A stretch of DNA of 64,000 nt from Candidatus Multivoradales bacterium (GCA_965223325.1 CBDCWI010000002.1:3712001-3776000), one strand, 5' to 3'; shown: positions 7,912 through 40,139, counted from the stretch's first letter. Notes: generated from the sequence alone by a model not told the origin. Made by a program: numbers and translations.

Positions 7912-7912
7912 C

Positions 7913-9325: not shown

Positions 9326-9340
9326 AGCACGGGTCCAGCG

Positions 9341-11632: not shown

Positions 11633-11732
11633 CCGCTGGCCGTCGAAACCAAACCAGCACGACTCATTTACACACCCACCAACCATCCCTCGAGTCTCCT
11701 GACTCTTTCCCTACGAACCGAGGACTGAACCC

Positions 11733-17488: not shown

Positions 17489-17495
17489 GCGCCTT

Positions 17496-17921: not shown

Positions 17922-19481
17922 TTGGCTGGTGTCAACCTGTCCCAGTGGGACATCGAGAACGAAGAGTTCTGGAGGGTAACCGGTCGCAGGATCGGGATGC
18001 GCAACCTCTGGATCTCGATTCCCTGTCTCCTGTGCGGCTTTGCGGTGTGGCTCTACTGGAGCATCATCACCACCGAGATGCTCAACCTGGGATTTCCCTT
18101 CACCCAGGCCCAGCTCTTTACCCTTGCCGGAATCGCTGGCGTCACCGGCGCCACTCTGCGCATTCCGAGCTCGTTTCTGATCCGCATCGCGGGCGGTCGC
18201 AACACGCTTTTCCTGACCACGTCGCTGCTGCTCCTTCCGGCGCTCGGAACGGGCCTCGCACTCCGTGATCCGGAGACGCCGCTGTGGGTCTTCTGGATGT
18301 TGGCGGCGCTCTCTGGCATCGGAGGCGGCAACTTCGCCTCTTCGATGTCGAACATCAGCTTCTTCTTTCCGAAGCGCATGCAGGGTCTCTCCCTGGGGCT
18401 CAACGCCGGCCTCGGCAATCTCGGGGTCAGCGTCATGCAGGTGCTCCTGCCCTACGTGATGACCTTCGGGTTGTTCGGTGCCGCCGCCGGAGAGCCACGA
18501 ACCAATCCCGCAACGGGTGCGCTGAGCTTCATTCAAAACGCCGGGTTCGTCTGGGTGCCGGTGCTCTTGTTGCTTGGCGTGCTGGCGTTTTTCGGTCTCA
18601 ACAACATCACCACAGAGTGGGTGTCGCCGGGTCTGGGCTCGACCCTGTCGAGTTTCGGCAAGGTGCTCTCGCTACTCCTCATCGGTCTCGTTGCCGCGTC
18701 GGCAGGGCTCTACCTCCTGCTAGTGCTCGGGGTCAGCAAGTGGATCGTGTTGCCGATGGTGATCGCTGCGACCGTCTTCGGGATGAAGCTCGTCCCAGGA
18801 GAAACCCGCGACGCACTCGACCGCCAGTACAAGATCTTTGGCAACAAACACACTTGGGTCATGACGGTCATCTACATCATGACCTTTGGCTCCTTCATCG
18901 GCTTCTCGGCGGCGTTTCCGCTCGCCATCAAGGTGATCTTCGGTTTTGCCCACAGCCCCACCGGCGCTGAGCTCGGTGTCAATCCGAATGCTCCGAACCC
19001 CTTCATGTACGCCTGGCTGGGTCCTCTGGTGGGCTCGTTGGCGCGCCCTGTCGGCGGCTGGGTGTCAGACATGAAGATTGGCGGCGCCAAGGTGACCCAG
19101 ATCATCACCTTGGTGATGATCTCTGCGGCCCTCGGGGTCTCGTACTTCATGGTGCAGGCCTACCGCTCCGAGACCCCTGAGGTCTTCTTTCTTCCCTTCC
19201 TGCTGCTCTTTCTCGCGCTGTTCACGGCGACCGGAGTCGGCAATGGCTCGACTTTTCGTTCGATGGGTGTGATGTTCGACAAAGAGCAGGCCGGCCCAGT
19301 CCTCGGGTGGACCTCGGCGGTTGCCGCCTACGGTGCCTACCTCATTCCGCAGATCCTCGGCGAGCAGATCCAGGCCGGAACACCCGAGCGTGCCCTGATG
19401 GGCTTTGCGGCTTTCTATACAGCTTGTCTGGTTCTAAACTGGTGGTACTACGCTAGGCGTAACGCCGAGATCAAGTGCTGA
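17922..19481 (+). CDS. narK: nitrate/nitrite MFS transporter, NarK2 (antiporter) type
   Basis: WDIENEEFW...RNLWISIP, GATLRIP, GIGGGNFASSMSNISFFFPK, MTFGSFIGFS, GVGNGSTF. TTG start after GGAGGG. Confidence 0.93.
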   Translation: MAGVNLSQWDIENEEFWRVTGRRIGMRNLWISIPCLLCGFAVWLYWSIITTEMLNLGFPFTQAQLFTLAGIAGVTGATLRIPSSFLIRIAGGRNTLFLTTSLLLLPALGTGLALRDPETPLWVFWMLAALSGIGGGNFASSMSNISFFFPKRMQGLSLGLNAGLGNLGVSVMQVLLPYVMTFGLFGAAAGEPRTNPATGALSFIQNAGFVWVPVLLLLGVLAFFGLNNITTEWVSPGLGSTLSSFGKVLSLLLIGLVAASAGLYLLLVLGVSKWIVLPMVIAATVFGMKLVPGETRDALDRQYKIFGNKHTWVMTVIYIMTFGSFIGFSAAFPLAIKVIFGFAHSPTGAELGVNPNAPNPFMYAWLGPLVGSLARPVGGWVSDMKIGGAKVTQIITLVMISAALGVSYFMVQAYRSETPEVFFLPFLLLFLALFTATGVGNGSTFRSMGVMFDKEQAGPVLGWTSAVAAYGAYLIPQILGEQIQAGTPERALMGFAAFYTACLVLNWWYYARRNAEIKC

Positions 19482-19534
19482 GCATGCCTGACGCTTTCAA
19501 CAACTCTCCAGCGCGACGCGCTTGAGGTGACTCG

Positions 19535-20374
19535 ATGAAGATGAAACGAAGTGCATGGCCGGCGCTCTTGCCGGCCGTCGTCATGTTGGTCGTGCCGCAG
19601 ATGGCGATCGGGCAGGAAACAAGTGACTACTTCCGCGCCAACTGCATGAGCTGTCACACCATCGGCGGCGGGCGCCTGGTCGGGCCTGACCTCAAAAACG
19701 TCGCCGAGCGCGCTGACCACGAGTGGCTGGTCAACTTCATCCTCAATCCGACCACGGTTCTCAACTCTGGCGACGCCTACGCCAAGAAGCTTCAGGATGA
19801 AGCGGGAGGTGCGGTGATGCCGGCGGTCATGGGAATGTCTCGCGATCAGGCAGAGCGACTGCTCGAGCTGATCGCCAGCGAGTCGCAACTCGACCAGTCT
19901 GCGTTCGCCGGTCTTTCGATTGGTGACGAGCCGTTCACCCAGGCCGACATCGATCGCGGAAAACGAATCTTCGAAGGGCGTCAACACCTGAGCAACGGGG
20001 GCCCGCCGTGCCTGTCGTGTCATACCGCCAGTGCTCTGGGTGGCTTCGGGGGCGGGCGCCTTGGTCCGGACCTGACCAGGGTGTACGAGCGCCTCGCCGG
20101 CCGCAAGAGCCTCGCCGCCTGGTTGCAAGCGCCGGCGACTGAAGTCATGCGGCCGGTCTACCGCGACCACACATTGACCAACGACGAGATCGTCGGCCTG
20201 GTTGCCTACCTCGAAGATCGCGCGCAAGCTGGCGGTGAAGCCTCGCAGACTTTCCAGGCGCTGTTGTTGGTACTCGGTCTCGTCGGTGTGGCGTTGACCT
20301 TCTTTTTGGCGGACACCCTCTGGAAGGGACGCTTTCGTGGAGTTAGAACCCCACTCGTGAAAGGTGAGCGATGA
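19535..20374 (+). CDS. membrane-anchored periplasmic dihaem cytochrome c (NarC-like)
   Basis: Signal peptide, two CxxCH motifs (CMSCH, CLSCH) each followed by GPDL and a distal Met, C-terminal TM helix; stop overlaps the narG start. Confidence 0.88.
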
Positions 20375-23300
20375 CCAAGATCAAGAGCAACAACCCGTGG
20401 ATCCAGGACGAGGTCGATCCACAGTCGCGCAGCTGGGAAGAGTTCTACCGCAACCGCTGGCAGCACGACAAGATCGTGCGCTCGACACACGGCGTCAACT
20501 GCACCGGTGGCTGCACCTGGCAGATCCACGTCAAGAACGGCATCGTCACATGGGAGATGCAGGGCCTCGACTACCCGTCGCTCCAGGCTGATCTGCCGCC
20601 CTACGAGCCGCGCGGTTGTCAGCGCGGGATCTCGTTCTCCTGGTACCTCTACAGCCCGCTGCGGGTGAAGTACCCCTACGCTCGCGGCGCCCTGCTCGAC
20701 CTCTGGCACGAGGCACGCAAGAAGCACGACGACCCGGTCGACGCCTGGAAGTCGTTGATGGACGACCCCACCAAACGCAGTCGCTTCCAGCGCGCCCGTG
20801 GCAAGGGCGGCTTCCGCCGCACCGACTGGGACACGGCGCTCGAGTTGATGGCGGCGGCCAACGTGCACACCATCAAAGAACACGGTCCCGACCGGGTCAA
20901 CGGCTTCTCGCCGATTCCCGCCATGTCGATGATCAGCTACGGCGGCGGTTCGCGCTTCCTACAGCTCGCCGGTGGTGTGTCGCTCTCCTTCTACGACTGG
21001 TACTGCGATTTGCCCAATGCGTCGCCCGAGACTTGGGGCGAACAAACCGACGTGCAGGAGTCGGCCGACTGGTTCAACGCCAAGCTTCTCGCCGTCATGG
21101 GCTCGAACCTCAACATGACCCGCACCCCCGACTGCCACTTCGCCGCCGAGGCGCGCCACAACGGTTCGAAGATGTGGGTCTTTGCGCCCGACTTCAACCA
21201 GGTCGCCAAGTATGCCGACGAGTGGGTGTCGATCAACGCGGGCCAGGACGGCGCCTGGTGGATGGCGGTCAACCATGTGCTTCTCAAGGAGTTCCACCAC
21301 GAGCGCCAGACCCCTTACTTTCTGAACTACGCCAAGCAGTACACCGACTGCACTCATCTGGTCGAGCTCCTGCCCGAGAACGGTCACTACAAGGCCGGGC
21401 AGATGCTGCGCGCCAACCGCCTGGCGACCTACCAGGACACCGAGAACGGTGACTGGAAGTTCCTCATGTGGGACAAGGGCGGCAAGCCCATGATGCCGAT
21501 GGGGAGCGCCGGCTTCCGGTGGGCAGACAAAAAGGGCCCGAACGGTGAGGGGCAGTGGAACCTCAAGCTCGAAGACGGTCAGACCGGGGAGAAGATCGAT
21601 CCCATCCTGAGTTTCCTCGAGGTCCAGAACGAAGGCTCGGTCGACCAACTGCAGGTCCGGCTGGACGACTTTGGCCAGGGCCGCACGATGACCAGGGGTG
21701 TGCCGGTGCAATACGTCGACACCATCGACGGTCCGGTTCCCTGTACCACGGTCTATGACTTGATGATGGCGCAGTACGGCGTCAACCGCGGTCTCGAGGG
21801 CGAGTACCCCGAAGACTACGATGCCGACAGCGCGTACACCCCGGCCTGGGCCGAGAAGTACACCGGCATGAGTCGCAAGATGGTGCTGCGATTCGCCCGC
21901 GAGTGGGGCGAGACCGCCGAGCGCACCGGTGGCGCCTGCACGATCATCATCGGTGCCGGCATCAACCACTGGTACCACGCCAACCTGATGTATCGCGCCG
22001 GCATTCACGCTCTCATGCTGTGCGGTTGCATCGGCGTCAACGGTGGTGGCCTGGCGCACTATGTCGGCCAGGAGAAGCTGGCACCCGGCGAGTCCTGGGG
22101 AGCACTGGCGATGGGTAAAGACTGGGCCCCGGCTTCGCGGCTCCAGAACGCACCCAGTTGGCACTACGTGCACACCGACCAGTGGCGCTACGAGAAGTCG
22201 TTCACCGACTACCACACGGTGCCCGAGGGGTCGCAGATGGCCCAAGGCCACACCATGGACATGCAGGTCAAGGCGGTGCGCAACGGCTGGTTGCCGTTCT
22301 ACCCGCAGTTCAACCGCAACAGTATCGACCTGGCGCGCGAAGCCCAGGAAGATGGTTGTGAGACCGATGAAGAGATCAGCGCCTGGTTGGTCGACAAGCT
22401 CAAAAACGACGAGGTTCAGTTCTCGATCGAGGATCCAGACGCTCCCGAGAACTGGCCGCGGGTCTGGTACATCTGGCGTGGCAATGCGCTGATGGCGAGT
22501 GCCAAGGGGCATGAGTACTTCCTCAAGCACTACCTCGGTACGCACACCAACACGATCTCCGAAGACATGGCTGAGGACTCGGTCGAAGACGTGCGCTGGC
22601 GCGACGCCCCGATCGGCAAGATGGACCTGGTGGTCGACATCAACTTCCGCATGGACACCTCGGCGCTCTACTCCGACATCGTCCTGCCGGCCGCCACCTG
22701 GTACGAGAAGGCCGACCTCAACTCGACCGACATGCACAGCTTCATTCACCCGCTGTCCAAGGCGGTGCCGCCGTGCTGGGAGTCGAAGAGCGACTGGCAG
22801 GCCTTCCGTGCTCTCGCCAAGAAGCAGGCCGAGCTCTCCGAGCGTCACTTCCCCGAACCCGTCAAGGACATCGTCGCGGTGCCGCTCGCCCACGACTCGA
22901 AGGCCGAGATTGCCCAGCGTCACATCCGCGATTGGAAAACGGGTGAGGTCGAGGCCATTCCGGGCAAGACCATGCCGGCCTTCAAGATCATGACCCGCGA
23001 CTACAAGAACCTCTACCGCCAGTTCTGCGCCTTCGGCCCCGGGCCGCGCAAGAACGGCCTCGGCGCTCACGGCACCCACTACGCAATTGAAGATTTCTAC
23101 GACGAGTTGGCAGCCAAGCAGCCGTCGAGAGAATGGCCGGGAGAGGCGTACCCGTCGGTCAAGGAAGACGAAGAAGCCTGCAACCTGATTCTCACCCTTG
23201 CTTCAGTAACCAATGGCGAACTGGCCTACCGCTCCTACAAGAACATGGAGAAGAGGACCGGCCTGCCCTTGGTACATCTCGCCGAGAAGAACCGCGGTTC

Positions 23301-24039
23301 GCGAGCGACCTACAAGGATCTCCAGAGCCAGGTGAAGCGCCTCCTCAACAGCCCGATGTGGTCGGGCCTGACCGAGAACGGTCGCGCCTACTCGCCATTC
23401 ACCTACAACGTCGAGACCCTGGTGCCTTGGCGCACGCTCACCGGCCGGCAGCACTTCTACCTCGATCACGAGATGTACATCGAATTCGGGGAGCACGTGC
23501 CGACCTACAAGCCGAAGCCCCTGCCCCACGAGTACGCCGACCTTGTGTATACCGAGGAACGCGGTGAGATCCCACACGAAGAGTCGATGATGCTCAACTA
23601 CCTCACCCCGCACGGGAAGTGGCACATTCACTCGACCTACGGCGACAACCAGCGCATGACGACCCTGTCGCGCGGCTGTGAGCCGCTGTGGATGAACCCG
23701 AAAGACGCAGCGCAAGTCGGAGTTGTCGACAACGACTGGGTCGAGGTCTTCAACGATCACGGCGTCGTTGCGACCCGCGCGGCCGTCTCGGCACGGATCC
23801 CGCCCGGCATCTGCATCCAATATCACTCGCCGGAGCGCACCTACTCGGTTCCCAAGTCTCCGCTACGTAAGAACAGGCGAGCCGGTGGCCACAACAGCCT
23901 CACCCGGACTCGCCTGAAGCCCAACCTGATGGCTGGTGGCTACGGCCAGTTCACGTTCCACTTCAACTACTGGGGCCCCACCGGCTGCAACCGTGACACG
24001 CACATCATGGTTCGCAAGATGCCCACCCTGAACTGGTAA
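20371..24039 (+). CDS. narG: respiratory nitrate reductase / cytoplasmic nitrite oxidoreductase alpha subunit (Mo-bisPGD)
   Basis: FS0 motif [11 protein letters not shown]...[27 protein letters not shown], Mo-ligand Asp in [23 protein letters not shown]; no Tat signal. Confidence 0.97.
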
Positions 24040-24073
24040 CCGAAGCACTGAAAGAAAAGGACGGAGACATTTC

Positions 24074-25567
24074 ATGAACGTACGCTCTCAAGTCTCGATG
24101 GTGTTTCACCTCGACAAGTGCATCGGTTGCCATACCTGCTCGATCGCCTGCAAGAACGTCTGGACGGACCGCCGTGGCACTGAGTACATGTGGTGGAACA
24201 ACGTCGAGACCAAGCCCGGTACTGGCTACCCCACCAAGTGGGAAGACCAGGAGAAGTACCAGGGCGGCTGGGAGGTCAAAGGTGACAAGGCGCAGCTCAA
24301 GTCGACCGGGCCCGCTCGGGTGGTGGCAAACATCTTCCACAACCCGCACCAGCCGTCGATGGACGACTACTACGAGCCATGGACGTACGACTACCAGAAC
24401 CTGTTCAACGCTCCCGAAGGTGACGATCAACCGGTGGCGCAGCCGATCTCGATGGTCACTGGCGAGCCGATGGACGTCGAAGCCGGGCCCAACTGGGATG
24501 ACGACCTCGGGGGTTCCGAGATCTACGCTGCCAACGACCCCAACCTCGACGGCCTGAGCCAACAGCAGCGCGACGAGTTGCAGGCCGTCGAGCGGCTGGT
24601 GTTCTTCTACTTCCCACGCATTTGCAACCACTGTCTGAACCCATCGTGCATTGCCTCGTGCCCGTCGGGTGCGCTTTATAAGCGCGGCGAAGACGGCATC
24701 GTTCTCATCGATCAGAAACGTTGTCGCGGTTGGCGCTCATGTGTCGCGGCCTGCCCCTACAAGAAGACCTTCTACAACTGGCAAACCGGCAAGTCCGAGA
24801 AGTGCATCTTGTGCTATCCGCGTCTCGAGACTGGCCAGGCGCCAGCCTGTTTCCACTCCTGCGTCGGCCGCATTCGCTATCTCGGCGTTCTGCTCTACGA
24901 CGCAGATCAGATCGAGGCTGCCGCCGCCCTTCCCGACGAAGAACTGGTCGAAGCGCAGCGCAACATGATCCTCGATCCGTTCGATCCCGAGGTCATCAAA
25001 GCGGCTCGCCGCGACGGTGTCCCCGACGACGTCATCGAGTCGGCCCAGAAGTCGCCGGTCTACCAGTTCGTCAAGGTGTGGAAGATCGCGCTTCCGCCAC
25101 ACGTCGAATACCGCACGTTCCCGATGCTCTTCTACGTGCCGCCGATGTCGCCGGTTCAGGCCAGCAAAGACGGCGACGTGGTGTTCCACATCAGCGGCAA
25201 CCTGTTTCACGACATCGACGAGGCGCGTGTGCCAATCGAGTACCTGGCGAATCTGTTCGGTGCGGGTGACGAAGGCGGTGTGCGCTACGCACTGCGTAAG
25301 CAGAAGGCGGTACGCATGTATCGACGGGCGCTCACGGTTGGCGATGTCGACGACGAGTGGGCAGCCCGCGCCCTGCGCGAGGCCGACTGCTCGCCCGAAG
25401 AGGCCGAGGCGATCTACAGGTTGACGGCGCTGTGCACCTTCGACGAGCGTTTCGTCATCCCGCCGATGCACCGTGAGGAAGCGCTGGCGATGATGGAAGA
25501 CGATCCGCACGAAACCAAGGCCTCGACCGGGTTCGGCTTCGTCCAGGCGCCACGAAGGGGTCTCTAG
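24074..25567 (+). CDS. narH: nitrate reductase / NXR beta subunit (Fe-S)
   Basis: LDKCIGCHTCSIACKN, CNHCLNPSCIASCP, CRGWRSCVAACPYKK, EKCILCYPR...CFHSCVGR. Confidence 0.97.
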   Translation: MNVRSQVSMVFHLDKCIGCHTCSIACKNVWTDRRGTEYMWWNNVETKPGTGYPTKWEDQEKYQGGWEVKGDKAQLKSTGPARVVANIFHNPHQPSMDDYYEPWTYDYQNLFNAPEGDDQPVAQPISMVTGEPMDVEAGPNWDDDLGGSEIYAANDPNLDGLSQQQRDELQAVERLVFFYFPRICNHCLNPSCIASCPSGALYKRGEDGIVLIDQKRCRGWRSCVAACPYKKTFYNWQTGKSEKCILCYPRLETGQAPACFHSCVGRIRYLGVLLYDADQIEAAAALPDEELVEAQRNMILDPFDPEVIKAARRDGVPDDVIESAQKSPVYQFVKVWKIALPPHVEYRTFPMLFYVPPMSPVQASKDGDVVFHISGNLFHDIDEARVPIEYLANLFGAGDEGGVRYALRKQKAVRMYRRALTVGDVDDEWAARALREADCSPEEAEAIYRLTALCTFDERFVIPPMHREEALAMMEDDPHETKASTGFGFVQAPRRGL

Positions 25568-26368
25568 ATGGGCACCGAGACACCAGCCAAGAGCACGGTG
25601 GACTGGAGTCCGCTAGCCCAGCTGGCGCCGCTTCTGGTGTACCCCACCCGGGAGCTGCCGAGCCAGTTACCTCTGTTGCGCGCGCTCTTCGAAGCGAGCG
25701 GTGAGCCGATGGCTCCTGAGCTCGAAGTGGCGCTGTCGCGACTCGCGGAGCTCACATTTCACGAGCTCGAAGAGCTGTACACCCAGATCTTCGACCTCAA
25801 TCCGGTGTGTACCCTCGAAGTCGGTTGGCACCTCTATGGAGAGCAGTACGAGCGCGGCCGCTTCCTGGTGCGCACCCGTGACCTCCTGATGAGTGTTGGC
25901 CAGGGCGAGGCCGGCGAGCTGCCGGACTTCTTGCCAACGCTGCTTCTGGCGCTGCCGCGCCTCGAGGCAGAGCGCGCCGTTGGGCTTGCGGCTTACCTGG
26001 TACCCGCACTACGAAAGATGTGTGATGCCTTCGGTGACGAAAAGCAGGCTGGCGAAGCCGCACAGCTCTATTTGCCGATCCTTCGCGCAGTGCGCGCTGG
26101 CCTCGAAGCGCGAGTACCGAAGGCTCTCGTCTCTGAAGTCGAAACGCGTTTCAGACCAGCAATGGTCGCGGGTCGAATGCGCGGTCTCGACCCTGGGCCG
26201 AACGGTGACTTCCCACTCGACATCGTTGGGGACACGGGCTTCTCCGGAAGAGCGGCGGCCGGACAGGACGGCATCGTGAAACTTGGGGTGGACAAGCCGC
26301 GCGGTCCGAAGGGCGCGGTGTCTGGCATTCCGATCAGCGAGATCCCGATGGAAGGAAAACCATCATGA
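25568..26368 (+). CDS. narJ: nitrate reductase molybdenum cofactor assembly chaperone
   Basis: LEELYTQIFDL, HLYGE..ERG, ELPDFLP; between narH and narI. Confidence 0.9.
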   Translation: MGTETPAKSTVDWSPLAQLAPLLVYPTRELPSQLPLLRALFEASGEPMAPELEVALSRLAELTFHELEELYTQIFDLNPVCTLEVGWHLYGEQYERGRFLVRTRDLLMSVGQGEAGELPDFLPTLLLALPRLEAERAVGLAAYLVPALRKMCDAFGDEKQAGEAAQLYLPILRAVRAGLEARVPKALVSEVETRFRPAMVAGRMRGLDPGPNGDFPLDIVGDTGFSGRAAAGQDGIVKLGVDKPRGPKGAVSGIPISEIPMEGKPS

Positions 26369-27075
26369 CCAACTGGGCTGCACAGCTCGACCTCTTTTTG
26401 TTCTCGGCCTTGCCATACATGGCGCTGGTGATCTTCTTCGTCGGCACCATCTACCGCTACCGGATGCAGGCCTTTACCTACTCGAGTCTGTCTTCGCAGT
26501 TCCTCGAGAACCGTCATCACTTCTGGGCGCTGGTGCCTTTCCACTACGGCATCCTGGTGGTGCTCGCCGGTCACATCCTGGCGTTTTTCCTCCCCAAGCA
26601 GATCCTGCTCTGGAACAGCGTGCCGGTGAGGCTATGGGCGCTCGAGATCACGGGACTGGTTTTTGGGCTCATGACCCTGGTGGGGCTCTTGGCGATCCTT
26701 GTGCGCCGCTGGACGACGTCGAAAGTCAAGATCGTGACCAGCACCGCCGACTGGGTTCTCTACCTGCTGCTCCTGGTCCAGGTGGCGACCGGTTTGTGGG
26801 TGGCGCTCGCCCACCCCTGGGGCTCGTCGTGGTTCGCCACGTCGATGACGCCCTATCTGTGGTCGATCGCCAAATTCTCACCCGCCGCCGAGTACATCGT
26901 GGGCATGCCATTCATCGTCAAGCTGCACGTCGTCAACGCGTTCGTTCTGATTCTGTTCTTCCCGTTCACTCGTCTGGTGCACGTCCTGGTGACGCCAAAC
27001 CACTACCTGTGGCGCAAGCGCCAGGTCGTCCGTTGGTATGCCAACCCCGCCGACCGGGCCGCGGCGCGGCGCTGA
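26365..27075 (+). CDS. narI: nitrate reductase gamma subunit (dihaem cytochrome b)
   Basis: SSLSSQFLE, FHYGIL...GH, KLH...FPFTRLVH: four haem-b His ligands and five TM helices. Confidence 0.95.
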   Translation: MTNWAAQLDLFLFSALPYMALVIFFVGTIYRYRMQAFTYSSLSSQFLENRHHFWALVPFHYGILVVLAGHILAFFLPKQILLWNSVPVRLWALEITGLVFGLMTLVGLLAILVRRWTTSKVKIVTSTADWVLYLLLLVQVATGLWVALAHPWGSSWFATSMTPYLWSIAKFSPAAEYIVGMPFIVKLHVVNAFVLILFFPFTRLVHVLVTPNHYLWRKRQVVRWYANPADRAAARR

Positions 27076-27098
27076 TGGTTGCTTAGGGGTAGACGCTC

Positions 27099-27764: not shown

Positions 27765-27773
27765 GTTTCGATC

Positions 27774-30700
27774 ATGAAAGAAGTAGAACGACTCCCCATC
27801 CTCCAGCCCAACCCAACGGGGGAAACGACGCTCGAAGAAGTCCTCGAGCGGGAAGGTGTCCTGGGCATAGGCCGGCGCGGTTTTCTGCAATCGGCCGGCT
27901 TTGGCCTGGCCGCCACGGCACTCGCGGGCTGTTCACGTGCTCCGATCGAGAAGGCGATTCCCTACGCCACTCAGCCCGAAGGTCTGGTGCCGGGGCGCGC
28001 GGACTGGTACGCCTCGACGTGTGCTGGCTGCTCGGCCGGGTGTGGCGTTCTGGTCAAGACGCGCGAAGGTCGACCGATCAAGCTCGAAGGCAATCCTGAC
28101 CATCCGGTTTCGAAGGGTGGTCTGTGTGCGGTGGGCCAGGCCAGCCTGGTCGGGCTCTACGACTCGCTGCGCTTTCGGAGCCCGATGGTCGACGGATCAT
28201 CCTCGACCTGGCAAGAAGTCGACACCCGGGTCACGGCGGCGCTCGCCAATACGTCGGGAGGTCGAGTGCGGCTCTTGACCGGAACCCTGAACGGTCCCAC
28301 CGATCGCGCCTGGATCGAGCGCTTCGTCGCACGTTTTGCCAACGCCCGCCACGTAACCTACGACGCGCTCTCGTCGTCGGCGATTCAGAGCGCCCACCTG
28401 AAGAGTCACGGTGTGCGTGCGCTGCCGCGCTACTTCTTCGATCGCGCCGAGACGATCGTCAGCTTCGGTGCCGACTTCTTGGGCAGCTGGGTTTCGCCGG
28501 TTGGTGATACCGCTCGCTACGTCAAGGGGCGCAGTCTCGCGACCAGCCCACCGCGAATGAGCCATCACACCCAGTTCGAAGGCAGGCTTTCGCTCACCGG
28601 GGCGAACGCCGACGAGCGGGTCAAGGTCTCGCCGAGTCAGGCCAGTGCTGCGTTGGCGTGGCTGGCGGCGGATCTGGGTGCCCGGGCCGGTGCGTCGGGA
28701 CACACCAGGGCTCCGCTTCCGGCAGCGCTCGAAGCCGAGGTCAAAGACGTTGCCGATCGGCTCTGGCAGTCGCGAGGTCGAGGTCTGGTGGTGTCGGATT
28801 CACAGGGCGAAACCGACCAGCTCCTGTGCAACCAGATCAACCATGCCCTCGACAACTACGGCCACACGCTCGACCTCGATCGGCCCTCGTATCAACGACT
28901 GGGCAACGACGCAGCGCTCGAGGAGTTGCTCGCTGAGCTCGAGCGGGGCGACGTCGAGGTTTTGATTACCGCGGGCGTCAACCCGGTCTACGACCTGCCA
29001 GACGCCTCGGGCCTTGCTGCTGCTCTCGATCGGGTCCCGCTGGTGGTGGCCATCGCGCAGCGTGACGACGAGACCACGGCGCACGCCGGGGTTGTATGCC
29101 CGGAGGCCCATGAGCTCGAGAGTTGGCGTGACGCCGAGCCGGTGGCCGGGGTCGTTTCGCTTACTCAGCCGGCGATTCGCAACGTGTTCGACTCGCGCAC
29201 CTTGAGCGAATGTCTCGCCGCCTGGACCGGGACACCGGGCACCGCCCTCGACCTCATGCGGAAGACCTGGGAAGAGCGGGTGTTCCCGCGCGCCAGGGCC
29301 CAAGGGAACTTCAGCGCCTTCTGGGACTTAGCGGTTCACGACGGTTACGTCGAGCTGCCGGCAGTGGCTACGGGTGCGGCCTGGGCTGCCCCAGCGATCA
29401 ATCCGGCTGCGTCCGGAGGGTCATCATCTGGGGAGACAGTATCCGGGGAGACAGCGGGTTTGGCGCTCGTTCTCTATCCCAAGGTCGGTCTGCTCGATGG
29501 GCGGCACGCTCACAACCCCTGGCTGCAGGAACTTCCCGATCCGATCACCAAGGCCAGCTGGGACAACTACGCGTGCATCGCTCCGGAGACCGCACGTGAG
29601 CTCGGGATCGAAACCGGCGACATGGTGCGGGTCGAGATCGATGCCGACGCGATCGAGCTGCCGGCCTTCGTCCAGGAGGCTCAGCATCCTGAGGTGGTCG
29701 CGGTGGCGGTCGGCTACGGCCGCACGGGAACCGATCGTTTCGAGAAGGTCGGGCCGCAATGGCTCGAGGCGCGCCCTAGCGTTTCAGCCGGCGACACCGT
29801 CGGCGTGCGCGCTAACGGCCTGGCGCACTGGCAGGATTCCCAGCGTTCGATGACGCAGAGTGGTGCGAAGCTCACCAAGCTAGCCGGCTCCGTGCGATTG
29901 GCGCTTTCGCAGACCACGGCGTCGCTTACTCCCGACGGCTTCCGTGAGCCACTCGACAAGTCGCCGCGCCCGATCGTTCAGGACACCGTACTCGGCGCAT
30001 ACATCAAAGATCCTCATGCCGGTACACCGGCCGTCCATCATTTCGACTCCGACCTGTGGCCCGAGCACGAGCCGGGTCGGCACCATTGGGGCCTGGCCGT
30101 CGACCTCAATGCCTGCACAGGTTGCAGTGCCTGCGTCGTCGCCTGCCAGTCCGAGAACAACGTGCCGGTCGTCGGCCGCGATGAAGTGCGACGGCGTCGT
30201 GACATGCAGTGGATGCGCCTCGATCGCTACTACAACGAAGAAGGCGATGCGACGTTTCAACCGATGATGTGTCAGCAGTGCGACAACGCGCCGTGCGAGA
30301 CGGTGTGCCCGGTGGTGGCCACGGTGCACAGCGACGAAGGCCTCAACCAGCAGGTCTACAACCGTTGTGTCGGCACGCGCTACTGTGCCAACAACTGCCC
30401 CTACAAGGTGCGGCGCTTCAACTGGTTCAACTACCGCCACGACGACCTGCTCGCCAACCTCGCCCTCAACCCGGAGGTCGTCGTGCGCACCCGCGGGGTG
30501 ATGGAAAAGTGCACCTTCTGCGTCCAGCGCATCGAAGACCGGCGGGCGAACGCCAAGGCAGAGGGCCATGAGCTCGAAGACGGCGAGATCAAGACCGCCT
30601 GCCAGCAATCGTGCCCGGCGGGTGCGATCGTATTCGGCGACATGGCAGACCCCAACAGTCAGGTGTCGCAGATGGCCCAAAGCGGGCGGCACTTCCGCAT

Positions 30701-30845
30701 TCTGGAAGAGATGAACATCAAGCCTTCGGTGGCCTATTTGAGGAAGGTGCGCAACCGGCCGGCTGGTGGCAGTCACCGTGATGACAGTGCCGGTGACCAT
30801 GCAACCGACCATGCGCCTACAGAGGAGGAAGCCGCTCATGGCTGA
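27774..30845 (+). CDS. actB: Alternative Complex III ActB (molybdopterin-oxidoreductase-like domain fused to Fe-S domain)
   Basis: Tat RRGFL plus lipobox [33 protein letters not shown]-terminal [41 protein letters not shown]...CQQSCP. Confidence 0.93.
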
Positions 30846-32750: not shown

Positions 32751-33427
32751 GCGGTCGCTTGATCAATACCGTCCTGATTGTTCTGTTCGTCGTGTTTCTG
32801 GCGGCGAACCTTCTCCTCGGTCGTCGCGGCGAGGGCCGGCGCGGCTTCGAATTCCTTCCCACGATGGTGCACTCGGTGCCCTACGACGCCTACTCCGAGC
32901 ACCCTCTACTGCCCGGTGGAATGGCGATGCAGGAGCCGCCCGAAGGTGTGATTGCCCGTGGCCGGATGCCTTTGCATTACGGTGCGAGCCCGGAAGAGGC
33001 GCTGCGCGCGGGTCGCGACCTCAAGAACCCGATTGCGCTGGCCAGCGCCGAGCAAGTGGAAGCCGATCTCGCCCGAGGTCAGCACCTCTTCGGCATCTAC
33101 TGCCTCCTTTGCCACGGTCCGGAGGGGCGCGGTGACGGAACTGTTGCACAACGCGGCTTTCCAGCTCCCCCGGCCTTCAACAGCGAGACCTCGGTAGCGC
33201 TCCGCGACGGCCAGATTTTCCACATCATCACCTTCGGCCAGAACAACATGCCCGGGCACAAGGCGCAGATCGATCCCATCGATCGCTGGCGCATTGTGCA
33301 GTATGTGCGTCAACTGCGCCTCAATCTGGCTCCCACAGGCGAGCCCTCGTCGCCCTCAGTAGCAGCGGAACCCCTGGTCGCAGTGACCGAAGATGATGCA
33401 GGCGACGCGATGGAGGTGCAGCAGTGA
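32747..33427 (+). CDS. actE: Alternative Complex III ActE monohaem cytochrome c
   Basis: N-terminal TM, PPEGVIARG, NPI, CLLCHG, G.G.G, DGQIFHIIT.G.NNMP, DRWRIV.YVRQL. Confidence 0.9.
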   Translation: MSGRLINTVLIVLFVVFLAANLLLGRRGEGRRGFEFLPTMVHSVPYDAYSEHPLLPGGMAMQEPPEGVIARGRMPLHYGASPEEALRAGRDLKNPIALASAEQVEADLARGQHLFGIYCLLCHGPEGRGDGTVAQRGFPAPPAFNSETSVALRDGQIFHIITFGQNNMPGHKAQIDPIDRWRIVQYVRQLRLNLAPTGEPSSPSVAAEPLVAVTEDDAGDAMEVQQ

Positions 33428-34644: not shown

Positions 34645-34720
34645 GCTCTGGTTCGGGCGATGATTCCACCGGGCGCGCATTCTCCTTGAGGCCTGCGAGC
34701 TCGGAAGCGAGATATAAACG

Positions 34721-36235
34721 ATGGAAGAGAAAGCTACCGTTGCTTCCCACAAAGCACTGACCCTCAACACCCTGGCGTTCACCGTCTGCTTCGGTGCCTG
34801 GATGCTCAACGGTGTCTTGGTGACCTTCCTGGTCGACAATCAGATCTTCGACTGGGGTCCGGTCAAGATCGGCTGGTTGATGGGTATTCCAGTCTTGACC
34901 GGCTCGGTTTTCCGGCTACCGGCCGGCATCCTCACCGACAAGTTCGGTGGCAAGCCCGTACTCGGTGCGCTGCTGGTCTTGTGTGCGATTCCAATGTATC
35001 TGCTGTCGTTTGCCAACAGCTACACGGACTTCGCGCTGGCCAGCTTCGGCTTCGGGTTTGCCGGCGTCAGCTTTGCCATCGGGATCGCCTACACTTCGGT
35101 GTGGTATCCGAAGCATCAACAGGGAACCGCGCTCGGCATCTTCGGAGCCGGTAACGCCGGCGCCGCACTGACCACTCTGTTTGCACCGACCGCCCTCGGC
35201 ATGCTTACCGACAACGGAGCCAACCTCGAAGGCTGGCGCAATCTACCGCGCATCTACGCTCTGATTCTCCTGGCCATGGGGATCATCTTCTTCCTGTTCA
35301 GCACCAACAAGAAGCCGGCGACCAGCGCTCGCACGTTGCCTCAGATGCTCAGCCCGCTGCGCGATATTCGCGTGTGGCGCTTCGGCCTCTACTACTTCTT
35401 GGTCTTTGGTTGTTTCGTGGCCTTCTCTCAGTGGCTGGTGCCCTACTTCGTGAACGTCTACTACCTGCCGCTGGTCACGGCTGGCATTTTCGCCGCGCTG
35501 TTCAGCTTTCCTTCCGGGGTCATACGAGCCCTCGGTGGTTGGATGTCTGACAAGTGGGGCGCGCGCCGTGTCATGTACTGGGTGCTCGGGTCGTCGGTCT
35601 TGATCAGCTTGATGCTCACCGTGCCGCGCATGGAGATCATGTCGCCGGGTCGCGGCATCATGGCCAAGCGCGCCGGTACCGTATCGGCAGTCTCGGGTAG
35701 CGAGATCACGGTCGATGGCGTCAACTACGCCTTGATCGACAAGAGCGGCGTGCCTAGCGAAGACGTACTCAACCAGGGCGTGATGTTCCTACCTCGCAAG
35801 GCCGTGTGGCAGGAGCCGGTAGTGACTGCGGGTGATGCGGTTGCCAAGAAGCAACTGCTCGCGAAAGGCGTGACGCGAATTTCCTTCCAGGCCAACGTCT
35901 GGGTGTTTGCCGTTCTGGTGATTCTGATCGGCAGCATCTGGGGGATCGGCAAGGCGGCGGTCTACAAACACATTCCGGACTACTTCCCCGAAGAGGTGGG
36001 TGTCGTCGGTGGCATGGTGGGTGTTCTCGGCGGACTCGGTGGGTTCTTCTGCCCGATCATCTTCGGCTATCTGCTGGAGGGCACCGGGTTGTGGACCAGT
36101 TGTTGGATGTTCATGCTCGCGCTTTCTGCCTTCTGCCTGATTTGGATGCACCGGGTCATCGAGCGCATGCTGCGCGAGCAGAGTCCAGATCTGATGCGGG
36201 AAATCGAACACCGCGAGGGCGCCGTAGCACCCTGA
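34721..36235 (+). CDS. narK: nitrate/nitrite MFS transporter, NarK1 (symporter) type, with inserted domain
   Basis: NTLAFTVCF..W, PVLTGSVFRLP.G.LTDKFGG, GIFGAGNAG, YYFLVFGCFVAF, RALGGWMSDKWG, GIGKAAVYKHIPDYFP, GGMVG..GGLGGFF. Confidence 0.92.
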   Translation: MEEKATVASHKALTLNTLAFTVCFGAWMLNGVLVTFLVDNQIFDWGPVKIGWLMGIPVLTGSVFRLPAGILTDKFGGKPVLGALLVLCAIPMYLLSFANSYTDFALASFGFGFAGVSFAIGIAYTSVWYPKHQQGTALGIFGAGNAGAALTTLFAPTALGMLTDNGANLEGWRNLPRIYALILLAMGIIFFLFSTNKKPATSARTLPQMLSPLRDIRVWRFGLYYFLVFGCFVAFSQWLVPYFVNVYYLPLVTAGIFAALFSFPSGVIRALGGWMSDKWGARRVMYWVLGSSVLISLMLTVPRMEIMSPGRGIMAKRAGTVSAVSGSEITVDGVNYALIDKSGVPSEDVLNQGVMFLPRKAVWQEPVVTAGDAVAKKQLLAKGVTRISFQANVWVFAVLVILIGSIWGIGKAAVYKHIPDYFPEEVGVVGGMVGVLGGLGGFFCPIIFGYLLEGTGLWTSCWMFMLALSAFCLIWMHRVIERMLREQSPDLMREIEHREGAVAP

Positions 36236-36263
36236 GAGTACCCACGCTGAGGATGACGAATCG

Positions 36264-38351
36264 ATGACGACGAAGCCGCTTCCTACCCAATCTCCGGCGA
36301 TTCTCGCCGAGCGGGGTTGGGCCTCGCGATTGGCGGCCGCAGTAGGCGCCTTTCTGCTCTTCGCAGGCCTTTCTGGGCTAGTGGTGTATCTGGTTCCCTT
36401 CTCGGAGGGAACCCAGATCGCGTTGCTGGTGCATGTCGTCCTTGGCCTGATTCTCGCCCTGCCGGTTCTGTTCTATGCCTGGGGACACATGCGCACCTGG
36501 ATGAAGCAGAGGGTCACCGCTTCGATGTTTCTGGGTTACGCGCTGCTGGTTGCCGTCCTGGTTGCGATCACTACCGGGTTCATCGGCACCGGCTTCGCCC
36601 TTTTCGCGAGCCGGCTTCCTCCGTTCGTCGACCTGGTCCATCTGGTCTCGGGCATTGCTGGGTTGGCCCTGGTAGCGAGCCACTTGGCGTCGGCGCTGTT
36701 GCGTCGGCTGCCGGCGGCCCGCCGCTCCACTCCGCTCAGCGGAGCCATGAGGAGCTTCGGGCGACGGACTGCGATTCTGGTGGGCGCCTTGGTATTGGCC
36801 GTCGGGCTGGCCTGGATTCTGTGGCCGCAGCACAACTACCGCTTCCCGGTTCCAGACGACTACTCCCTGCCGTCGTACGCGCAACAGTTCGAGGAGTATC
36901 GCGGCAACCCTTTCGCTCCCACCTTCGCACGCACCGTCGACTTCGAGATGGTCGAGCCGGCTCTTTTGGCGAACTCGGCGTCTTGCGGAACCAGCCGCTG
37001 CCATGAACAGATCCTTGCCGAGTGGCAGCCGAGTGCGCACCGCTTCTCGGCGATGAACCAGCCCTTCCAGGAGATTCAGAAGCGCTTTGCCGCCGACCGA
37101 GAGCCGGCCGAGACCCGCTACTGCGCCGGTTGTCACGACCCGATCTCGCTGTTCGCCGGAGCGAAAGATCTGCACCAGATGGACCTTTCGTCAGCGGGTG
37201 TCGACGAGGGGATCTCGTGCGCCAGCTGCCATTCGATTTCACAGGTCGACCAGCGCGGTAACGCCGACTATGTTCTGACCCCGCCCGAGAAGTATCTCTG
37301 GGAAGCGACCACCGGTTGGACCAAACTGGTTTCGGACTTCCTGGTTCGTGCCTATCCGCGCCAGCACCTCGCCGACTACGACCGCGCCCTCCTCCGCACG
37401 CCCGAGTTCTGTGCGACCTGCCACAAACAGTTCATTCCCGAAGCGCTCAACCGCTTTGGCATGGTGACCAGCCAGAACCAGTACGACGAATGGAAGAACG
37501 GCCGCTGGCATTCCGACGACCCCGAGGTCGATCTCTCCTGCCGCGACTGTCACATGCGTTTGGTTCCGTCGACCGATCCAGGCCGTGGTGAGGCCGGTGA
37601 TGTGCGGCGCTCCCCTTCCGATCGGTCGCACCGCCACCACGGAACGATTGCCACCAACAACTTCATGCCCGCAGTCCTCGACCTGCCGAACTGGCAAGAG
37701 CACGTACGCCTGACCAACGAGTGGATGCGGGGCGAGACCGTGTTGCCTGAGATAGCCGACATCTTCCCTCTAGGTCCGGTGTCGAGCGTCACCCTGGCCG
37801 CTCCCGACGAGGCCGCTCCCGGTGAGGAGATCGAGTTGCGGGTCGTGGTCTCGAATCGCAAGGCGGGGCACAACTTCATCACCGGCCCGCTGGACTTTGT
37901 GCGCTCCTGGGTCCACTTGCGACTCCGCGACGAGAGCGGAAACCTGATCGCCGAGTTCGGATCGATGGATCCGGTGACCCGCCGCATTCTCGATCGCGAA
38001 GACACGCCGCATGTGAGCGCCAACGCTCGAGACGAGGGGACGCTGGTTCTCGAGTCGATGCCCATCGACGAGGACGGTGAGATTCTTCGCCAGCACGAGT
38101 TGTGGCGCAAGGCTGGCGGTACCGGCAAACGCGTCATTTTCCCCGGTCACTCCGATTCCCAGCTCTACCGCGTGACGGTTCCCGAGACAGCCTCCGGCGA
38201 GATCACCATTGAAGCCGACTTGAACTATCGTCGCTACCGACAGGAGTTCCTCGAGTTGGTGGTGCCGGAGCTCGAAGAAACGAGCGGCGTGATTCAGCCG
38301 GTCGTTACGCAGAGTCACGCCGCCGCGACGCTTCTCGTGCGCGGTCCCTGA
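36264..38351 (+). CDS. membrane multihaem cytochrome: N-terminal His-containing TM region, c554-like multihaem domain, C-terminal beta domain
   Basis: About five TM helices with four His. Haem motifs CGTSRCH (CX4CH), CAGCH, CASCH, CATCH, CRDCH; W..SAH, QYDEWK, GHNF.TG. Confidence 0.82.
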   Translation: MTTKPLPTQSPAILAERGWASRLAAAVGAFLLFAGLSGLVVYLVPFSEGTQIALLVHVVLGLILALPVLFYAWGHMRTWMKQRVTASMFLGYALLVAVLVAITTGFIGTGFALFASRLPPFVDLVHLVSGIAGLALVASHLASALLRRLPAARRSTPLSGAMRSFGRRTAILVGALVLAVGLAWILWPQHNYRFPVPDDYSLPSYAQQFEEYRGNPFAPTFARTVDFEMVEPALLANSASCGTSRCHEQILAEWQPSAHRFSAMNQPFQEIQKRFAADREPAETRYCAGCHDPISLFAGAKDLHQMDLSSAGVDEGISCASCHSISQVDQRGNADYVLTPPEKYLWEATTGWTKLVSDFLVRAYPRQHLADYDRALLRTPEFCATCHKQFIPEALNRFGMVTSQNQYDEWKNGRWHSDDPEVDLSCRDCHMRLVPSTDPGRGEAGDVRRSPSDRSHRHHGTIATNNFMPAVLDLPNWQEHVRLTNEWMRGETVLPEIADIFPLGPVSSVTLAAPDEAAPGEEIELRVVVSNRKAGHNFITGPLDFVRSWVHLRLRDESGNLIAEFGSMDPVTRRILDREDTPHVSANARDEGTLVLESMPIDEDGEILRQHELWRKAGGTGKRVIFPGHSDSQLYRVTVPETASGEITIEADLNYRRYRQEFLELVVPELEETSGVIQPVVTQSHAAATLLVRGP

Positions 38352-40139
38352 GTGGCAACCAAGAGAGAGCGTCGGCTGTGGACATCGGTCGTTCTGACCG
38401 TTCTGGGGGTCGCTGTCCTGGTGGCCCTGGGGCTCTTGCGATCGATGCGCGAAGACACCGACCTCGCCGACCCCGAGGCCTCGGTGACCACCGAGTTCCA
38501 GCATGCGACCTCGAGCGAAGCTCCCGAGCTCGCCTTTCGTGATGTGGCAGTCGAGCTCGGAGTCGACTTTCGTCACGGTCCGGGAAGGCGGACCCGATTG
38601 CTGCCCGAAGACACCGGTTCGGGAGTTGCCTGGGGAGACTACGACGGCGACGGGGACGACGATCTCTACCTGGTGAACTTCCCGAACCCCGAAGACCCGC
38701 TGGACCCGACGGGTAACAATCGGCTGTGGCGCAACGACGGCGGACGTTTCTACGACGTGACCGAGCGCGCTGGCGTGGCTGATCTGGGAGGTAACGGAAT
38801 GGGCGCCGGCTTTGCCGACTTCGACGGTGACTCCGATCTCGATCTGTTCGTCGCCAATTACGGTGCCGACAGGCTGTTCGAGAACCGTGGCGATGGCACC
38901 TTCCGCGACCTGGCCCCAGCGCTGGGGCTCGCCGGAGACGGTTGGTCGATCTCCCCTGTGTGGGGTGATGTCGATCGGGATGGGCGGCTCGACCTCTATG
39001 TGACGCGCTATGTGAAGTACGACGCCCCCGCTCCTGAGCCGGTAGCGACCGACCCCAATTGGGAGTCGGTTCCGTTCTCGCTCAACCCGAACTCGTTCGA
39101 CTCGCTGCCCAACCGCCTGTACCTGCAGCAGCCGGATGGCACTTTCGAAGAGTCGGCGCTCGTTCTGGGCGTGGCCAACGCGGGCGGGCGCACCCTGGGC
39201 GCAAGCTTTGTCGACGTCGATGGAGACGGCTGGCTCGATCTTTACGTTGCCAACGATGTGTCGCCCAATGCCCTGTTCAGGAACCTCGGTGGCGACGAGG
39301 GGTACCTGACCTTCGACGACTGGAGTGCGGTGACTGGCACTGCCGATGAGCGTGGATCGATGGGCATCTCGGTGGCCGATTTGTTCAGCTCGAGCGGTGG
39401 TCCCGACGGCCGACCCGACCTGTTCATCAGCCACTGGGTTGCGCAGGAGAACGCCCTCTATGTCTCGACTCTCACCGAGACCGGGAGGCTCGAGTACCGC
39501 GATCGCATTCGCCAGTACCGGTTGGGCGAGGTGTCCACCGATCGGGTGGGCTGGGGGACGGCGTTCGTCGACTTCGATCTCGACGGTCGCCTGGACATCG
39601 CAGTCGCCAATGGCAGCACCCTCGAGGTGAGACCCTCAGAGGAGCGGGCGCCGAAACTCGAGGCGCAACCCGCGTTTTTCTTCTGGAACGGTGGCGACCG
39701 TTTCTACGACGTGACGACGAGCGCCGGAGCCGACGCGGGTACGGCTCGCGTCGCACGAGGACTGGCCACCAGCGACTTCGACCTCGATGGTGACAGCGAC
39801 CTGGCGATTTCCGTCAACCGGGGAGCGTTCGTCTTGCTGCGCAACGAGAGCGAGCACGAGGCCGGCGCTTCGGGGGGGAGCTGGTTGGCCGTGCGCCTGG
39901 CGACGACAGACGCCTTGGCGATCGGGAGTCGTATCGAGGTCAGAACCGGTGAGACGCTGGACACCCGGTTCGTCGGCGCCGACGCCTCGTACGCTTCTCT
40001 TCACAGTCGAGAGCAGGTTTTCGGCCTGGGTGAAGACAGTCGCGCTACCGTGTCGATCAAGCTGGCCGGAAGTCCGAGCCTGCGGTTCCTGGAGGTGCCG
40101 GCAGGCCACCGTATGATCGTTCCAGTGCGCTCCCTCTAA
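38352..40139 (+). CDS. CRTAC1-family FG-GAP beta-propeller protein with ASPIC/UnbV C-terminal domain
   Basis: N-terminal TM anchor, seven D-x-D-x-D-G-x-x-D-like repeats, AIGSRIEV...SYAS...FGLG C-terminus. GTG start directly after the upstream stop. Confidence 0.88.
   Translation: MATKRERRLWTSVVLTVLGVAVLVALGLLRSMREDTDLADPEASVTTEFQHATSSEAPELAFRDVAVELGVDFRHGPGRRTRLLPEDTGSGVAWGDYDGDGDDDLYLVNFPNPEDPLDPTGNNRLWRNDGGRFYDVTERAGVADLGGNGMGAGFADFDGDSDLDLFVANYGADRLFENRGDGTFRDLAPALGLAGDGWSISPVWGDVDRDGRLDLYVTRYVKYDAPAPEPVATDPNWESVPFSLNPNSFDSLPNRLYLQQPDGTFEESALVLGVANAGGRTLGASFVDVDGDGWLDLYVANDVSPNALFRNLGGDEGYLTFDDWSAVTGTADERGSMGISVADLFSSSGGPDGRPDLFISHWVAQENALYVSTLTETGRLEYRDRIRQYRLGEVSTDRVGWGTAFVDFDLDGRLDIAVANGSTLEVRPSEERAPKLEAQPAFFFWNGGDRFYDVTTSAGADAGTARVARGLATSDFDLDGDSDLAISVNRGAFVLLRNESEHEAGASGGSWLAVRLATTDALAIGSRIEVRTGETLDTRFVGADASYASLHSREQVFGLGEDSRATVSIKLAGSPSLRFLEVPAGHRMIVPVRSL

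Follow-up and report, generated by a model that had tools for sequence, protein, structure and literature searches.

In textbook accounts the membrane-bound nitrate reductase NarGHI receives its electrons straight from quinol and is deemed to need no complex III. Why, then, do the genes of a complete alternative complex III (ACIII), a quinol:cytochrome c (or auracyanin) oxidoreductase, stand directly behind narI in a bacterial chromosome? The question is raised by a 64,000-nt stretch of DNA from Candidatus Multivoradales bacterium (GCA_965223325.1 CBDCWI010000002.1:3712001-3776000), hereafter the window, in which a first-pass annotation had noted nitrate reductase (nar) and ACIII (act) genes as one operon-like block. 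Here we report that the occurrence of act genes behind narI is far beyond chance and that this arrangement recurs in at least three bacterial phyla. Judged from the sequences, the block may encode one composite respiratory unit in which a Thermus-type NarC–NarGHI and a complete ActABCDEF would be wired in series, a reading to which we give slightly less than an even chance.

Recurrence of the nar–act arrangement

A search with the NarI sequence as query returned 15 loci, of which 11 were informative, that is, carried enough sequence 3′ of narI for the next genes to be seen. In all 11, actABCDEF followed narI, with zero to two narK genes between them. These 11 come from five lineages of Acidobacteriota, from Planctomycetota and from two Gammaproteobacteria; the other four contigs, three of them from Bacteroidota, were too short to judge. 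In the seven loci that reached far enough upstream, the cytochrome gene narC was invariably found 5′ of narG.

The arrangement was then counted in two phylum samples of 301 genomes each. The Acidobacteriota sample, whose denominators take in the unpublished genomes G063, G088 and G189 (no locus from them was used), yielded 28 NarI loci in 25 genomes; three loci ended too soon, and actABCDEF followed narI in 23 of the 25 informative ones. One of these 23 adjoins a divergent molybdoenzyme instead of NarG, and both exceptions are extra nar paralogues (57–58% NarG identity) in genomes that also carry the module. The Planctomycetota sample held 41 genomes with one NarI locus each; three loci ended too soon, and act genes followed narI in 34 of the remaining 38. 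With the two samples pooled, narI was followed by actABCDEF in 57 of 63 informative loci and NarC was encoded 5′ of narG in nearly all, so that the synteny is not unique to this assembly and nearly every membrane nitrate reductase sampled in two large, environmentally abundant phyla is encoded with ACIII and NarC. By our own open reading frame (ORF) calls, the gap between narI and actA measured −4 to +36 bp in 12 of the 14 loci without an intervening narK.

Among the nearest relatives (41 genomes including the host), a true NarI was present in four, each with ActD about 5 kb downstream. A genome of the same genus, G001 (99% complete), has neither a true NarI nor a nar-type ActD, which makes the distribution patchy among close relatives and is consistent with gain or loss of the genes as a block. 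Within the host, contigs from four other sequencing runs (three samples, one study) span 25600-30382 and 32127-35500 with 0 mismatches. The narI–actA junction, where a coverage break had been named as a point to check, and the actF–narK junction are thus both bridged by independent contigs, and the arrangement is no assembly artefact.

Two loci met in the comparison have an unusual composition. One Acidobacteriota genome has a second module (L049, G072:C1:129428-149075) comprising a NarC-like cytochrome (51% identity), an iron–sulfur subunit and a full ACIII, together with a divergent molybdopterin enzyme of 26–30% identity to NarG and a NarI-family gene scoring 122 bits; to judge by these matches, the same scaffold seems here to carry a molybdoenzyme of another kind. 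A cytochrome c::molybdoenzyme fusion considered at this locus was rejected because its parts lie in different reading frames, and an ORF at 7416-8258 that had been taken as the NarI-like gene had no Pfam match and aligned poorly, so nothing is drawn from it. Elsewhere (L047 and L036, G122:C40), two nar operons stand in tandem: a divergent narC-narGHJI (58% NarG identity) without ACIII lies 7 kb 5′ of a full narC-narGHJI-actABCDEF.

Gene content, subunits and surroundings of the block

An ORF check of the window, together with profile scans, bore out the 15 gene calls of the first-pass annotation, their coordinates and their gaps. The genes are co-oriented on the + strand at 17922..40139, in the order narK, narC, narGHJI, actABCDEF, narK, multihaem protein gene and FG-GAP protein gene:

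17922..19481, +: narK-type nitrate/nitrite transporter of the major facilitator superfamily (MFS), first annotated as narK2; NCBIfam NarU-like 302 bits and TIGR00886 266 bits, both below cut-off
19535..20374, +: narC, membrane-anchored dihaem cytochrome c; PF00034, signal peptide, two CXXCH motifs, Thermus match
20371..24039, +: narG, catalytic molybdenum subunit, cytoplasm-facing; TIGR01580 1467 bits (cut-off 1084)
24074..25567, +: narH, iron–sulfur subunit; TIGR01660 665 bits (cut-off 524)
25568..26368, +: narJ-like chaperone; TIGR00684 49 bits, below the cut-off of 59, in the conserved place between narH and narI
26365..27075, +: narI, dihaem cytochrome b membrane subunit; TIGR00351 132 bits (cut-off 106), PF02665 206 bits
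27099..27764, +: actA, pentahaem cytochrome c with an N-terminal membrane helix; five CXXCH motifs, cytochrome c7/c3 Pfam matches
27774..30845, +: actB, presumably cofactor-less molybdopterin-like domain fused to an iron–sulfur domain, exported; 6BTM_B 632 bits, 6F0K_B 592 bits
30838..32214, + (the ORF opens at 30766; likely ATG at 30838): actC, NrfD-like quinol-binding membrane subunit; 6BTM_C 614 bits, 6F0K_C 597 bits, PF03916
32211..32750, +: actD; PF11821 177 bits
32747..33427, +: actE, monohaem cytochrome c; one CXXCH at residue 119, PF13442
33424..34644, +: actF, second NrfD-like membrane subunit; 6BTM_F 164 bits, 6F0K_F 142 bits
34721..36235, +: second narK-type MFS transporter, first annotated as narK1; PF07690 150 bits, TIGR00886 188 bits (below cut-off)
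36264..38351, +: membrane multihaem cytochrome, membership uncertain; PF13435, four CXXCH plus one longer motif, N-terminal hydrophobic region
38352..40139, +: FG-GAP/ASPIC-like protein, membership uncertain; PF13517 135 bits

The junctions (negative values denote overlaps) measure 53 bp for narK–narC, −4 for narC–narG, 34 for narG–narH, 0 for narH–narJ and −4 for narJ–narI, then 23 bp for narI–actA, 9 for actA–actB, −80 for actB–actC and −4 each for actC–actD, actD–actE and actE–actF, and finally 76 bp for actF–second narK, 28 for second narK–multihaem gene and 0 for multihaem gene–FG-GAP gene. If the ATG at 30838 is the start of actC, the overlap of actB and actC is −8 instead of −80; alignment of ActC to 6BTM_C and 6F0K_C begins at residue 31. 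A simple scan found no terminator-like site in any intergenic gap of the block, those between narI and actA and between actF and the second narK included; it returned weak stems alone, all within coding sequence. The operon-like build without an internal terminator proposed earlier was thus upheld. A sigma-70 scan, uninformative for this phylum, gave no site 5′ of the block and one promoter-like site within narG, and FNR-type boxes (consensus TTGAT-N4-ATCAA, with up to two mismatches) numbered 22 in the window and 0 in 17489-17921, before the first narK, counts from which we draw nothing about regulation.

The cytochrome gene 5′ of narG had been called simply cytochrome c, a correct call that missed its kinship: by sequence, its product is homologous to NarC of Thermus, where this protein is already known as the fourth subunit of Nar. 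The protein has a signal peptide, CXXCH motifs at residues 37 and 159 and a C-terminal hydrophobic helix. Its best plasmid matches were 14 Thermus records, and it is 42% identical (103 residues, E 3e-18) to the c-type cytochrome encoded directly 5′ of narG on a Thermus thermophilus plasmid, the similarity being confined to the second haem domain. Thermus NarC is described as binding NarI and as needed for NarG maturation (PMC7694296), and in the available text of two sources (PMC7694296, PMC10609526) both properties are known for Thermus only. It is thought there to replace complex III as the electron bridge to the periplasmic reductases Nir and Nor (PMC7694296), and the available part of a Thermus review terms its role ‘not well defined’.

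The N-terminus of NarG carries the motif HGVNCTGGC and no twin-arginine (Tat) signal; ActB has the twin-arginine motif RRGFLQ followed by LAGC. The nitrate site would therefore be cytoplasmic and the iron–sulfur subunit of ACIII periplasmic, and the two NarK-family genes of the block fit a cytoplasm-facing nitrate site. In an alignment with E. coli NarI, all four haem histidines are conserved and Arg replaces Lys86; across 28 module NarI sequences, H60, H70, H188, H206, R89 and E94 are invariant. We take the roles of these residues, as haem ligands and, for Lys86, as the cationic residue of the quinol site, to be those of E. coli NarI. All six ACIII core subunits, ActA to ActF, are present. 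Every one of the five CXXCH motifs of ActA is invariant in 28 sequences, and ActB carries the Pfam domains Molybdop_Fe4S4, Molydop_binding and Fer4.

Relatives of the first narK were found within the same module at many compared loci. The multihaem and FG-GAP pair recurred behind the module, among the loci compared, only in a genome of the same family (G010, locus L051, with L008 from the same genome), at 73% and 61% identity. The 5′ flank of the block holds a dcw cell-division/cell-wall cluster, a kinase and a dehydrogenase, and the 3′ flank peptidases. The dcw cluster is complete and occupies positions 1-13073 on the same strand (mur ligases, an mraY-like gene, ftsW, murG, ftsQ, ftsA and ftsZ); because it lies upstream of the block in the same orientation, the block is placed in core chromosome.

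As first noted, no haem-copper oxygen reductase is encoded nearby: no COX1-family gene was found in the window, the three COX1 matches of the genome lying at other sites. A profile search of the 6.69-Mb host genome (G000) gave three ActD matches, three COX1-family genes and one cytochrome b. A second ACIII of the genome lies 5 kb from a COX1 gene, so the objection raised in advance, that the ACIII studied here might be the only complex III, does not apply to this host. The third, distant ActD-like match (65 bits; G000:C1:1103692-1104165, L003 and L065) lies within an ACIII-like locus whose ActC is 43% identical to that of the window, and this weak ActD class was found again in most relatives. 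The sole cytochrome b gene adjoins a divergent COX1-family gene (314 bits; G000:C2:1290478-1293497, L006 and L007), and the pair may, by its sequence, represent a bc-type complex with an oxidase or NO reductase.

Proposed electron flow and competing explanations

In the proposed unit, Nar and ACIII would touch in the membrane, with the NarI and NarC side against the ActA haem subunit. Quinol would be oxidized at ActC, and electrons would pass from ActC through the iron–sulfur clusters of ActB to the c haems of ActA, ActE and NarC. The c haems would hand them to the NarI haem on the periplasmic side, from which they would move across the membrane to the inner haem and on to nitrate by way of NarH and NarG. 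If ACIII moves protons, it would form an extra coupling site ahead of the Nar redox loop; by textbook potentials, menaquinol and nitrate lie about 0.5 V apart, enough to accommodate such a site in addition to the 2 H+/2e− of the loop. Direct oxidation of quinol at NarI, with exit of electrons via NarC to periplasmic acceptors, may coexist with the series route, because NarI appears to keep a quinol site of its own. The series route rests on analogy with the DsrMKJOP complex and with the transfer of electrons from ACIII to an oxidase's cytochrome c domain. A complex prediction for NarI, NarC (residues 27-279) and ActA scored 0.00, which amounts to no verdict and carries no weight either way.

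Contact between the two halves is suggested by loci at which narGH is absent. G027 encodes an in-frame fusion of a NarI-like domain to ActA, between a NarC-like gene and actBCDEF, with no narGH within 6.6 kb upstream. The fusion is no sequencing slip, because 54 of the 120 top-scoring clusters retrieved from a large protein collection, drawn from several sources, combine PF02665 and multihaem-c domains in one protein of 380–460 amino acids (aa). A set of 14 Planctomycetota ACIII loci (12 from genomes without a NarI-gene match and with intermediate ActD scores, two from genomes with an ACIII-less nar operon) included two that end at a contig end within actB and 12 with upstream sequence (ten from NarI-less genomes, two from genomes with a separate nar operon). 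Eight of these 12 have NarC-like and NarI-like genes directly before actA and lack adjoining narGH; the NarI-like gene was borne out by Pfam in all six NarGH-less loci checked. Another two have a ferredoxin gene and then a cytochrome c::ActA fusion, and the last two show neither arrangement before actA, cox genes following in one. At the ferredoxin loci (L107:12352-14051 and L115:5747-7518), a 4Fe-4S ferredoxin of 205–208 aa precedes a cytochrome c::ActA of 358–385 aa, the two replacing the NarC-like and NarI-like genes.

The fused and NarGH-less NarI-like proteins keep two of the four haem histidines, against all four in module NarI (n=28), and the two kept are presumably, by the E. coli assignment, the ligands of the periplasmic-side haem. 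The only known job of the inner NarI haem is to feed NarH; its ligands are lost exactly where NarGH is absent, and the outer haem stays with ACIII. The fusions, and the NarI-like and NarC-like genes kept by actA without narGH, are hard to explain without physical association. Together with the cross-phylum synteny, they give substance to the earlier suggestion that Nar and ACIII belong together and could form a supercomplex.

Other fusions of ActA were also encountered: its multihaem domains are joined to an MFS transporter in P0110 (628 aa, PF07690) and to a TehA-like permease in P0082 (558 aa, PF03595), and in many Bacteroidota proteins ActA is fused to an additional cytochrome c domain.

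In a tree of ActC built from 47 rows by a quick method, with the root on a long branch, 11 ACIII copies without adjoining nar genes fell into a single clade that excluded the nar-linked copies of the same genomes, and at least nine of the 11 have a COX1 gene within about 6 kb. Nar-linked copies of different phyla were intermixed and did not resolve as a single clade. Identity to the ActC of the window is 58–87% at nar-, NarC- or NarI-associated loci, with L049 as an outlier at 48%, and 43–64% at other ACIII loci. The ActD bit-score class, tried as a marker of ‘nar-type’ ACIII, was rejected, since NarI-less Planctomycetota also score 150–185 bits.

Several observations weigh against the series reading. 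To judge by its four histidines and invariant arginine, NarI probably has an intact quinol site, so that input from ACIII would be unneeded for activity. Proton pumping by ACIII is unproven. Thermus has NarC yet no ACIII beside nar on the one plasmid compared. The NarGH-less loci suggest that a core of ACIII with NarC-like and NarI-like proteins works without nitrate reduction, and the MFS and TehA-like fusions of ActA mean that fusion may partly mirror the mere adjacency of membrane genes. Gene inventories were taken from 43 carriers, namely 19 of the 24 known in Acidobacteriota (same-genus duplicates dropped), 22 Planctomycetota (21 of them from the 34 carriers of the sample) and two Gammaproteobacteria. 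In 23 of the 43 (19/22 Planctomycetota, 4/19 Acidobacteriota) there is no ActD match other than that of the nar-linked ACIII, and COX1-family genes are present in 42; because of these two counts, the nar-linked ACIII probably also serves oxidases in many organisms. ActD was found in 146 of the 301 Planctomycetota genomes, in 41/41 with NarI and in 105/260 without. Much of this is fitted equally well by a branched complex that also sends electrons outward, and our confidence in the series route therefore stops short of even.

A stronger form of the series reading holds that NarC–NarGHI–ACIII is an obligate supercomplex in which ACIII is a proton-translocating, quinol-oxidizing front end and the outer haem of NarI is fed by the c haems; the NarI-family subunit would be ancestral in this ACIII subfamily and the NarGH-less forms would be oxidase-serving derivatives. 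From the sequence comparisons we regard this version as rather unlikely. Were it true, Acidobacteriota and Planctomycetota would conserve more energy per electron than the NarGHI redox loop allows.

Of the explanations that do without a series route, the one that survives best makes ACIII with its NarC-like and NarI-like subunits a general quinol:cytochrome c oxidoreductase, on whose NarI the NarGH pair would be an optional plug-in; with nitrate present, NarI would oxidize quinol as in E. coli, and ACIII and NarC would send electrons to periplasmic cytochromes, oxidases and other acceptors. In favour of this are the counts of sole ActD matches and COX1-family genes just given, the core kept at NarGH-less loci, the likely quinol-site residue retained in NarI and the Thermus precedent, in which NarC is described as standing in for complex III by passing electrons to Nir and Nor (PMC7694296). 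Against it, the host genome already has a separate ACIII 5 kb from COX1, as well as a cytochrome b, so that a second general complex III would be redundant, and the explanation gives no reason why, in 57 of 63 loci, narC is separated from narI-actA by narGHJ. The acceptors that such a branch would supply are also scarce. NirK was found in 1/43 carriers, NirS in 1/43, NosZ in 3/43 and NrfA in 22/43, and 17/43 had none of the four; any of the cytochrome-c-dependent enzymes NirK, NirS or NosZ was present in just five of 43, in a search that did not cover nitric oxide reductase or unusual nitrite reductases and in metagenome-assembled genomes (MAGs) that may be incomplete. Of the four genes the host has NosZ only, with no match to NirK, NirS or NrfA. 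Supply of downstream denitrification thus cannot be the general reason for the Nar–ACIII linkage, and the first suggestion that quinol electrons are branched to downstream N-oxide reductases lost ground. On balance we consider the general-oxidoreductase explanation doubtful.

Mere co-regulation would make Nar and ACIII separate complexes that are co-transcribed (ACIII, for example, as an anaerobic complex III isoform) and transferred as a block without contact. The tight, co-oriented block with no intergenic terminator-like site, the patchy cross-phylum distribution with absence from same-genus G001 and the mixing of phyla in the ActC tree would all follow from it. It does not account for the NarI-like::ActA fusions, which are a recurrent family, or for the persistence of NarI-like and NarC-like genes by actA without narGH and with selective loss of the inner-haem ligands, and we judge it distinctly unlikely.

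The carriers bear lineage labels such as Pirellulales, Bryobacteraceae, Holophagae, Thermoanaerobaculia and similar, and we know of no nitrite oxidizers among these lineages. The RuBisCO large subunit was not found in G000, G010, G036 or G027, in a search that did not extend to other carbon-fixation routes, and the sole match in a fifth carrier, G032, is weak and interrupted by a stop codon. With NrfA in 22/43 carriers also suggesting nitrate reduction on to ammonium, it is highly improbable that the enzyme is a nitrite oxidoreductase passing electrons from nitrite via NarI and NarC to cytochrome c and an oxidase while ACIII runs in reverse to reduce quinone, an earlier proposal for which we found no positive evidence, even if a very similar narC-containing cluster of Nitrobacter acts as a nitrite oxidoreductase (PMC7694296), COX1-family genes occur in 42/43 carriers and, according to the available text of PMC10732223, NarG/NxrA sequences of this clade do not reveal in which direction the enzyme works.

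If Nar and ACIII do form one complex, current estimates may be too low for the energy that these groups gain by respiring nitrate in soils, sediments and wastewater. The role of NarC would then have a general explanation, and ACIII a second physiological partner, an anaerobic one. Such a complex would also offer a new test system, with an easily measured reaction, for proton pumping by NrfD-type subunits, a long-open question.

Comparison with known systems

Our literature search, whose reach did not include subscription journals, found the nar–act synteny in print once (PMC10732223; FEMS Microbiol Lett 2023), and no paper naming both ‘alternative complex III’ and ‘NarI’ was found, in the text available, to connect the two. 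The available text of that report describes a six-gene cluster downstream of Nar, in 13 instances from Planctomycetota and KSB1 MAGs, which encodes a five-haem cytochrome, a fused FeS/molybdopterin protein, NrfD, actD, ‘ccoP’ and a ‘quinone-binding subunit 2’. Its authors found no match to a described complex and proposed a novel NrfAH-like nitrite reductase or a role in electron transport (PMC10732223). The synteny is the same as here; unlike here, ACIII, NarC, the NarI-like subunits and the fusions are not recognized, and occurrences in Acidobacteriota and Gammaproteobacteria are not reported, in that text. The first-pass view of an undescribed system holds in that the ACIII had gone unrecognized in print, and fails in that the synteny itself had been printed for Planctomycetota MAGs in 2023. 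What we describe is a composite, widespread and made of known parts, that one earlier paper noticed without understanding it.

Solved and classical ACIIIs neighbour or bind haem-copper oxidases or photosynthetic partners. With the ACIIIs of Flavobacterium johnsoniae, Rhodothermus marinus and Roseiflexus castenholzii (6BTM, 6F0K, 6LOD) the ACIII of the window shares the six core subunits; unlike them, it follows narI and has no haem-copper oxidase gene beside it. The ActB family is said to act exclusively in aerobic respiration (PMC10100899, available text). In the literature texts available to us, we found no NarC-like or NarI-like protein described as an ACIII subunit.

The nitrate reductase half resembles NarCGHI of Thermus thermophilus, in which the gene for a dihaem, membrane-anchored cytochrome c likewise stands directly 5′ of narG, the order is narC-narG-narH-narJ-narI-narK and NarG faces the cytoplasm. 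The difference is that no act genes follow narI or narK on the Thermus plasmid examined, whereas a full ACIII does so here and in 57/63 loci.

In its encoded building blocks the unit is most like DsrMKJOP of sulfate reducers: both have a cytochrome b of the NarI family, a quinol subunit resembling NrfD, an iron–sulfur protein in the periplasm, c haems and a cytoplasmic catalytic module; HmcABCDEF is likewise built from such parts. NCBIfam neighbours reflect this: NarI falls near DsrM, HmcE and TmcC, ActB near DsrO, QrcC and HmcB, and ActC near DsrP. The two differ in the catalytic module, HdrD-like DsrK there and NarGH here, and in the two NrfD-like subunits, ActD and ActE present here. For DsrMKJOP, the available text of a cryo-EM preprint proposes a route from quinol at DsrP through DsrO and the c haems of DsrJ to DsrM and DsrK, with proton pumping by DsrP likewise unproven (bioRxiv 10.64898/2026.08.25.746951). 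DsrP is a homologue of ActC and DsrM of NarI. The NarI-like subunits and their fusions to ActA widen the known composition of ACIII and point to an evolutionary tie with the DsrMKJOP/Hmc family of sulfate reducers.

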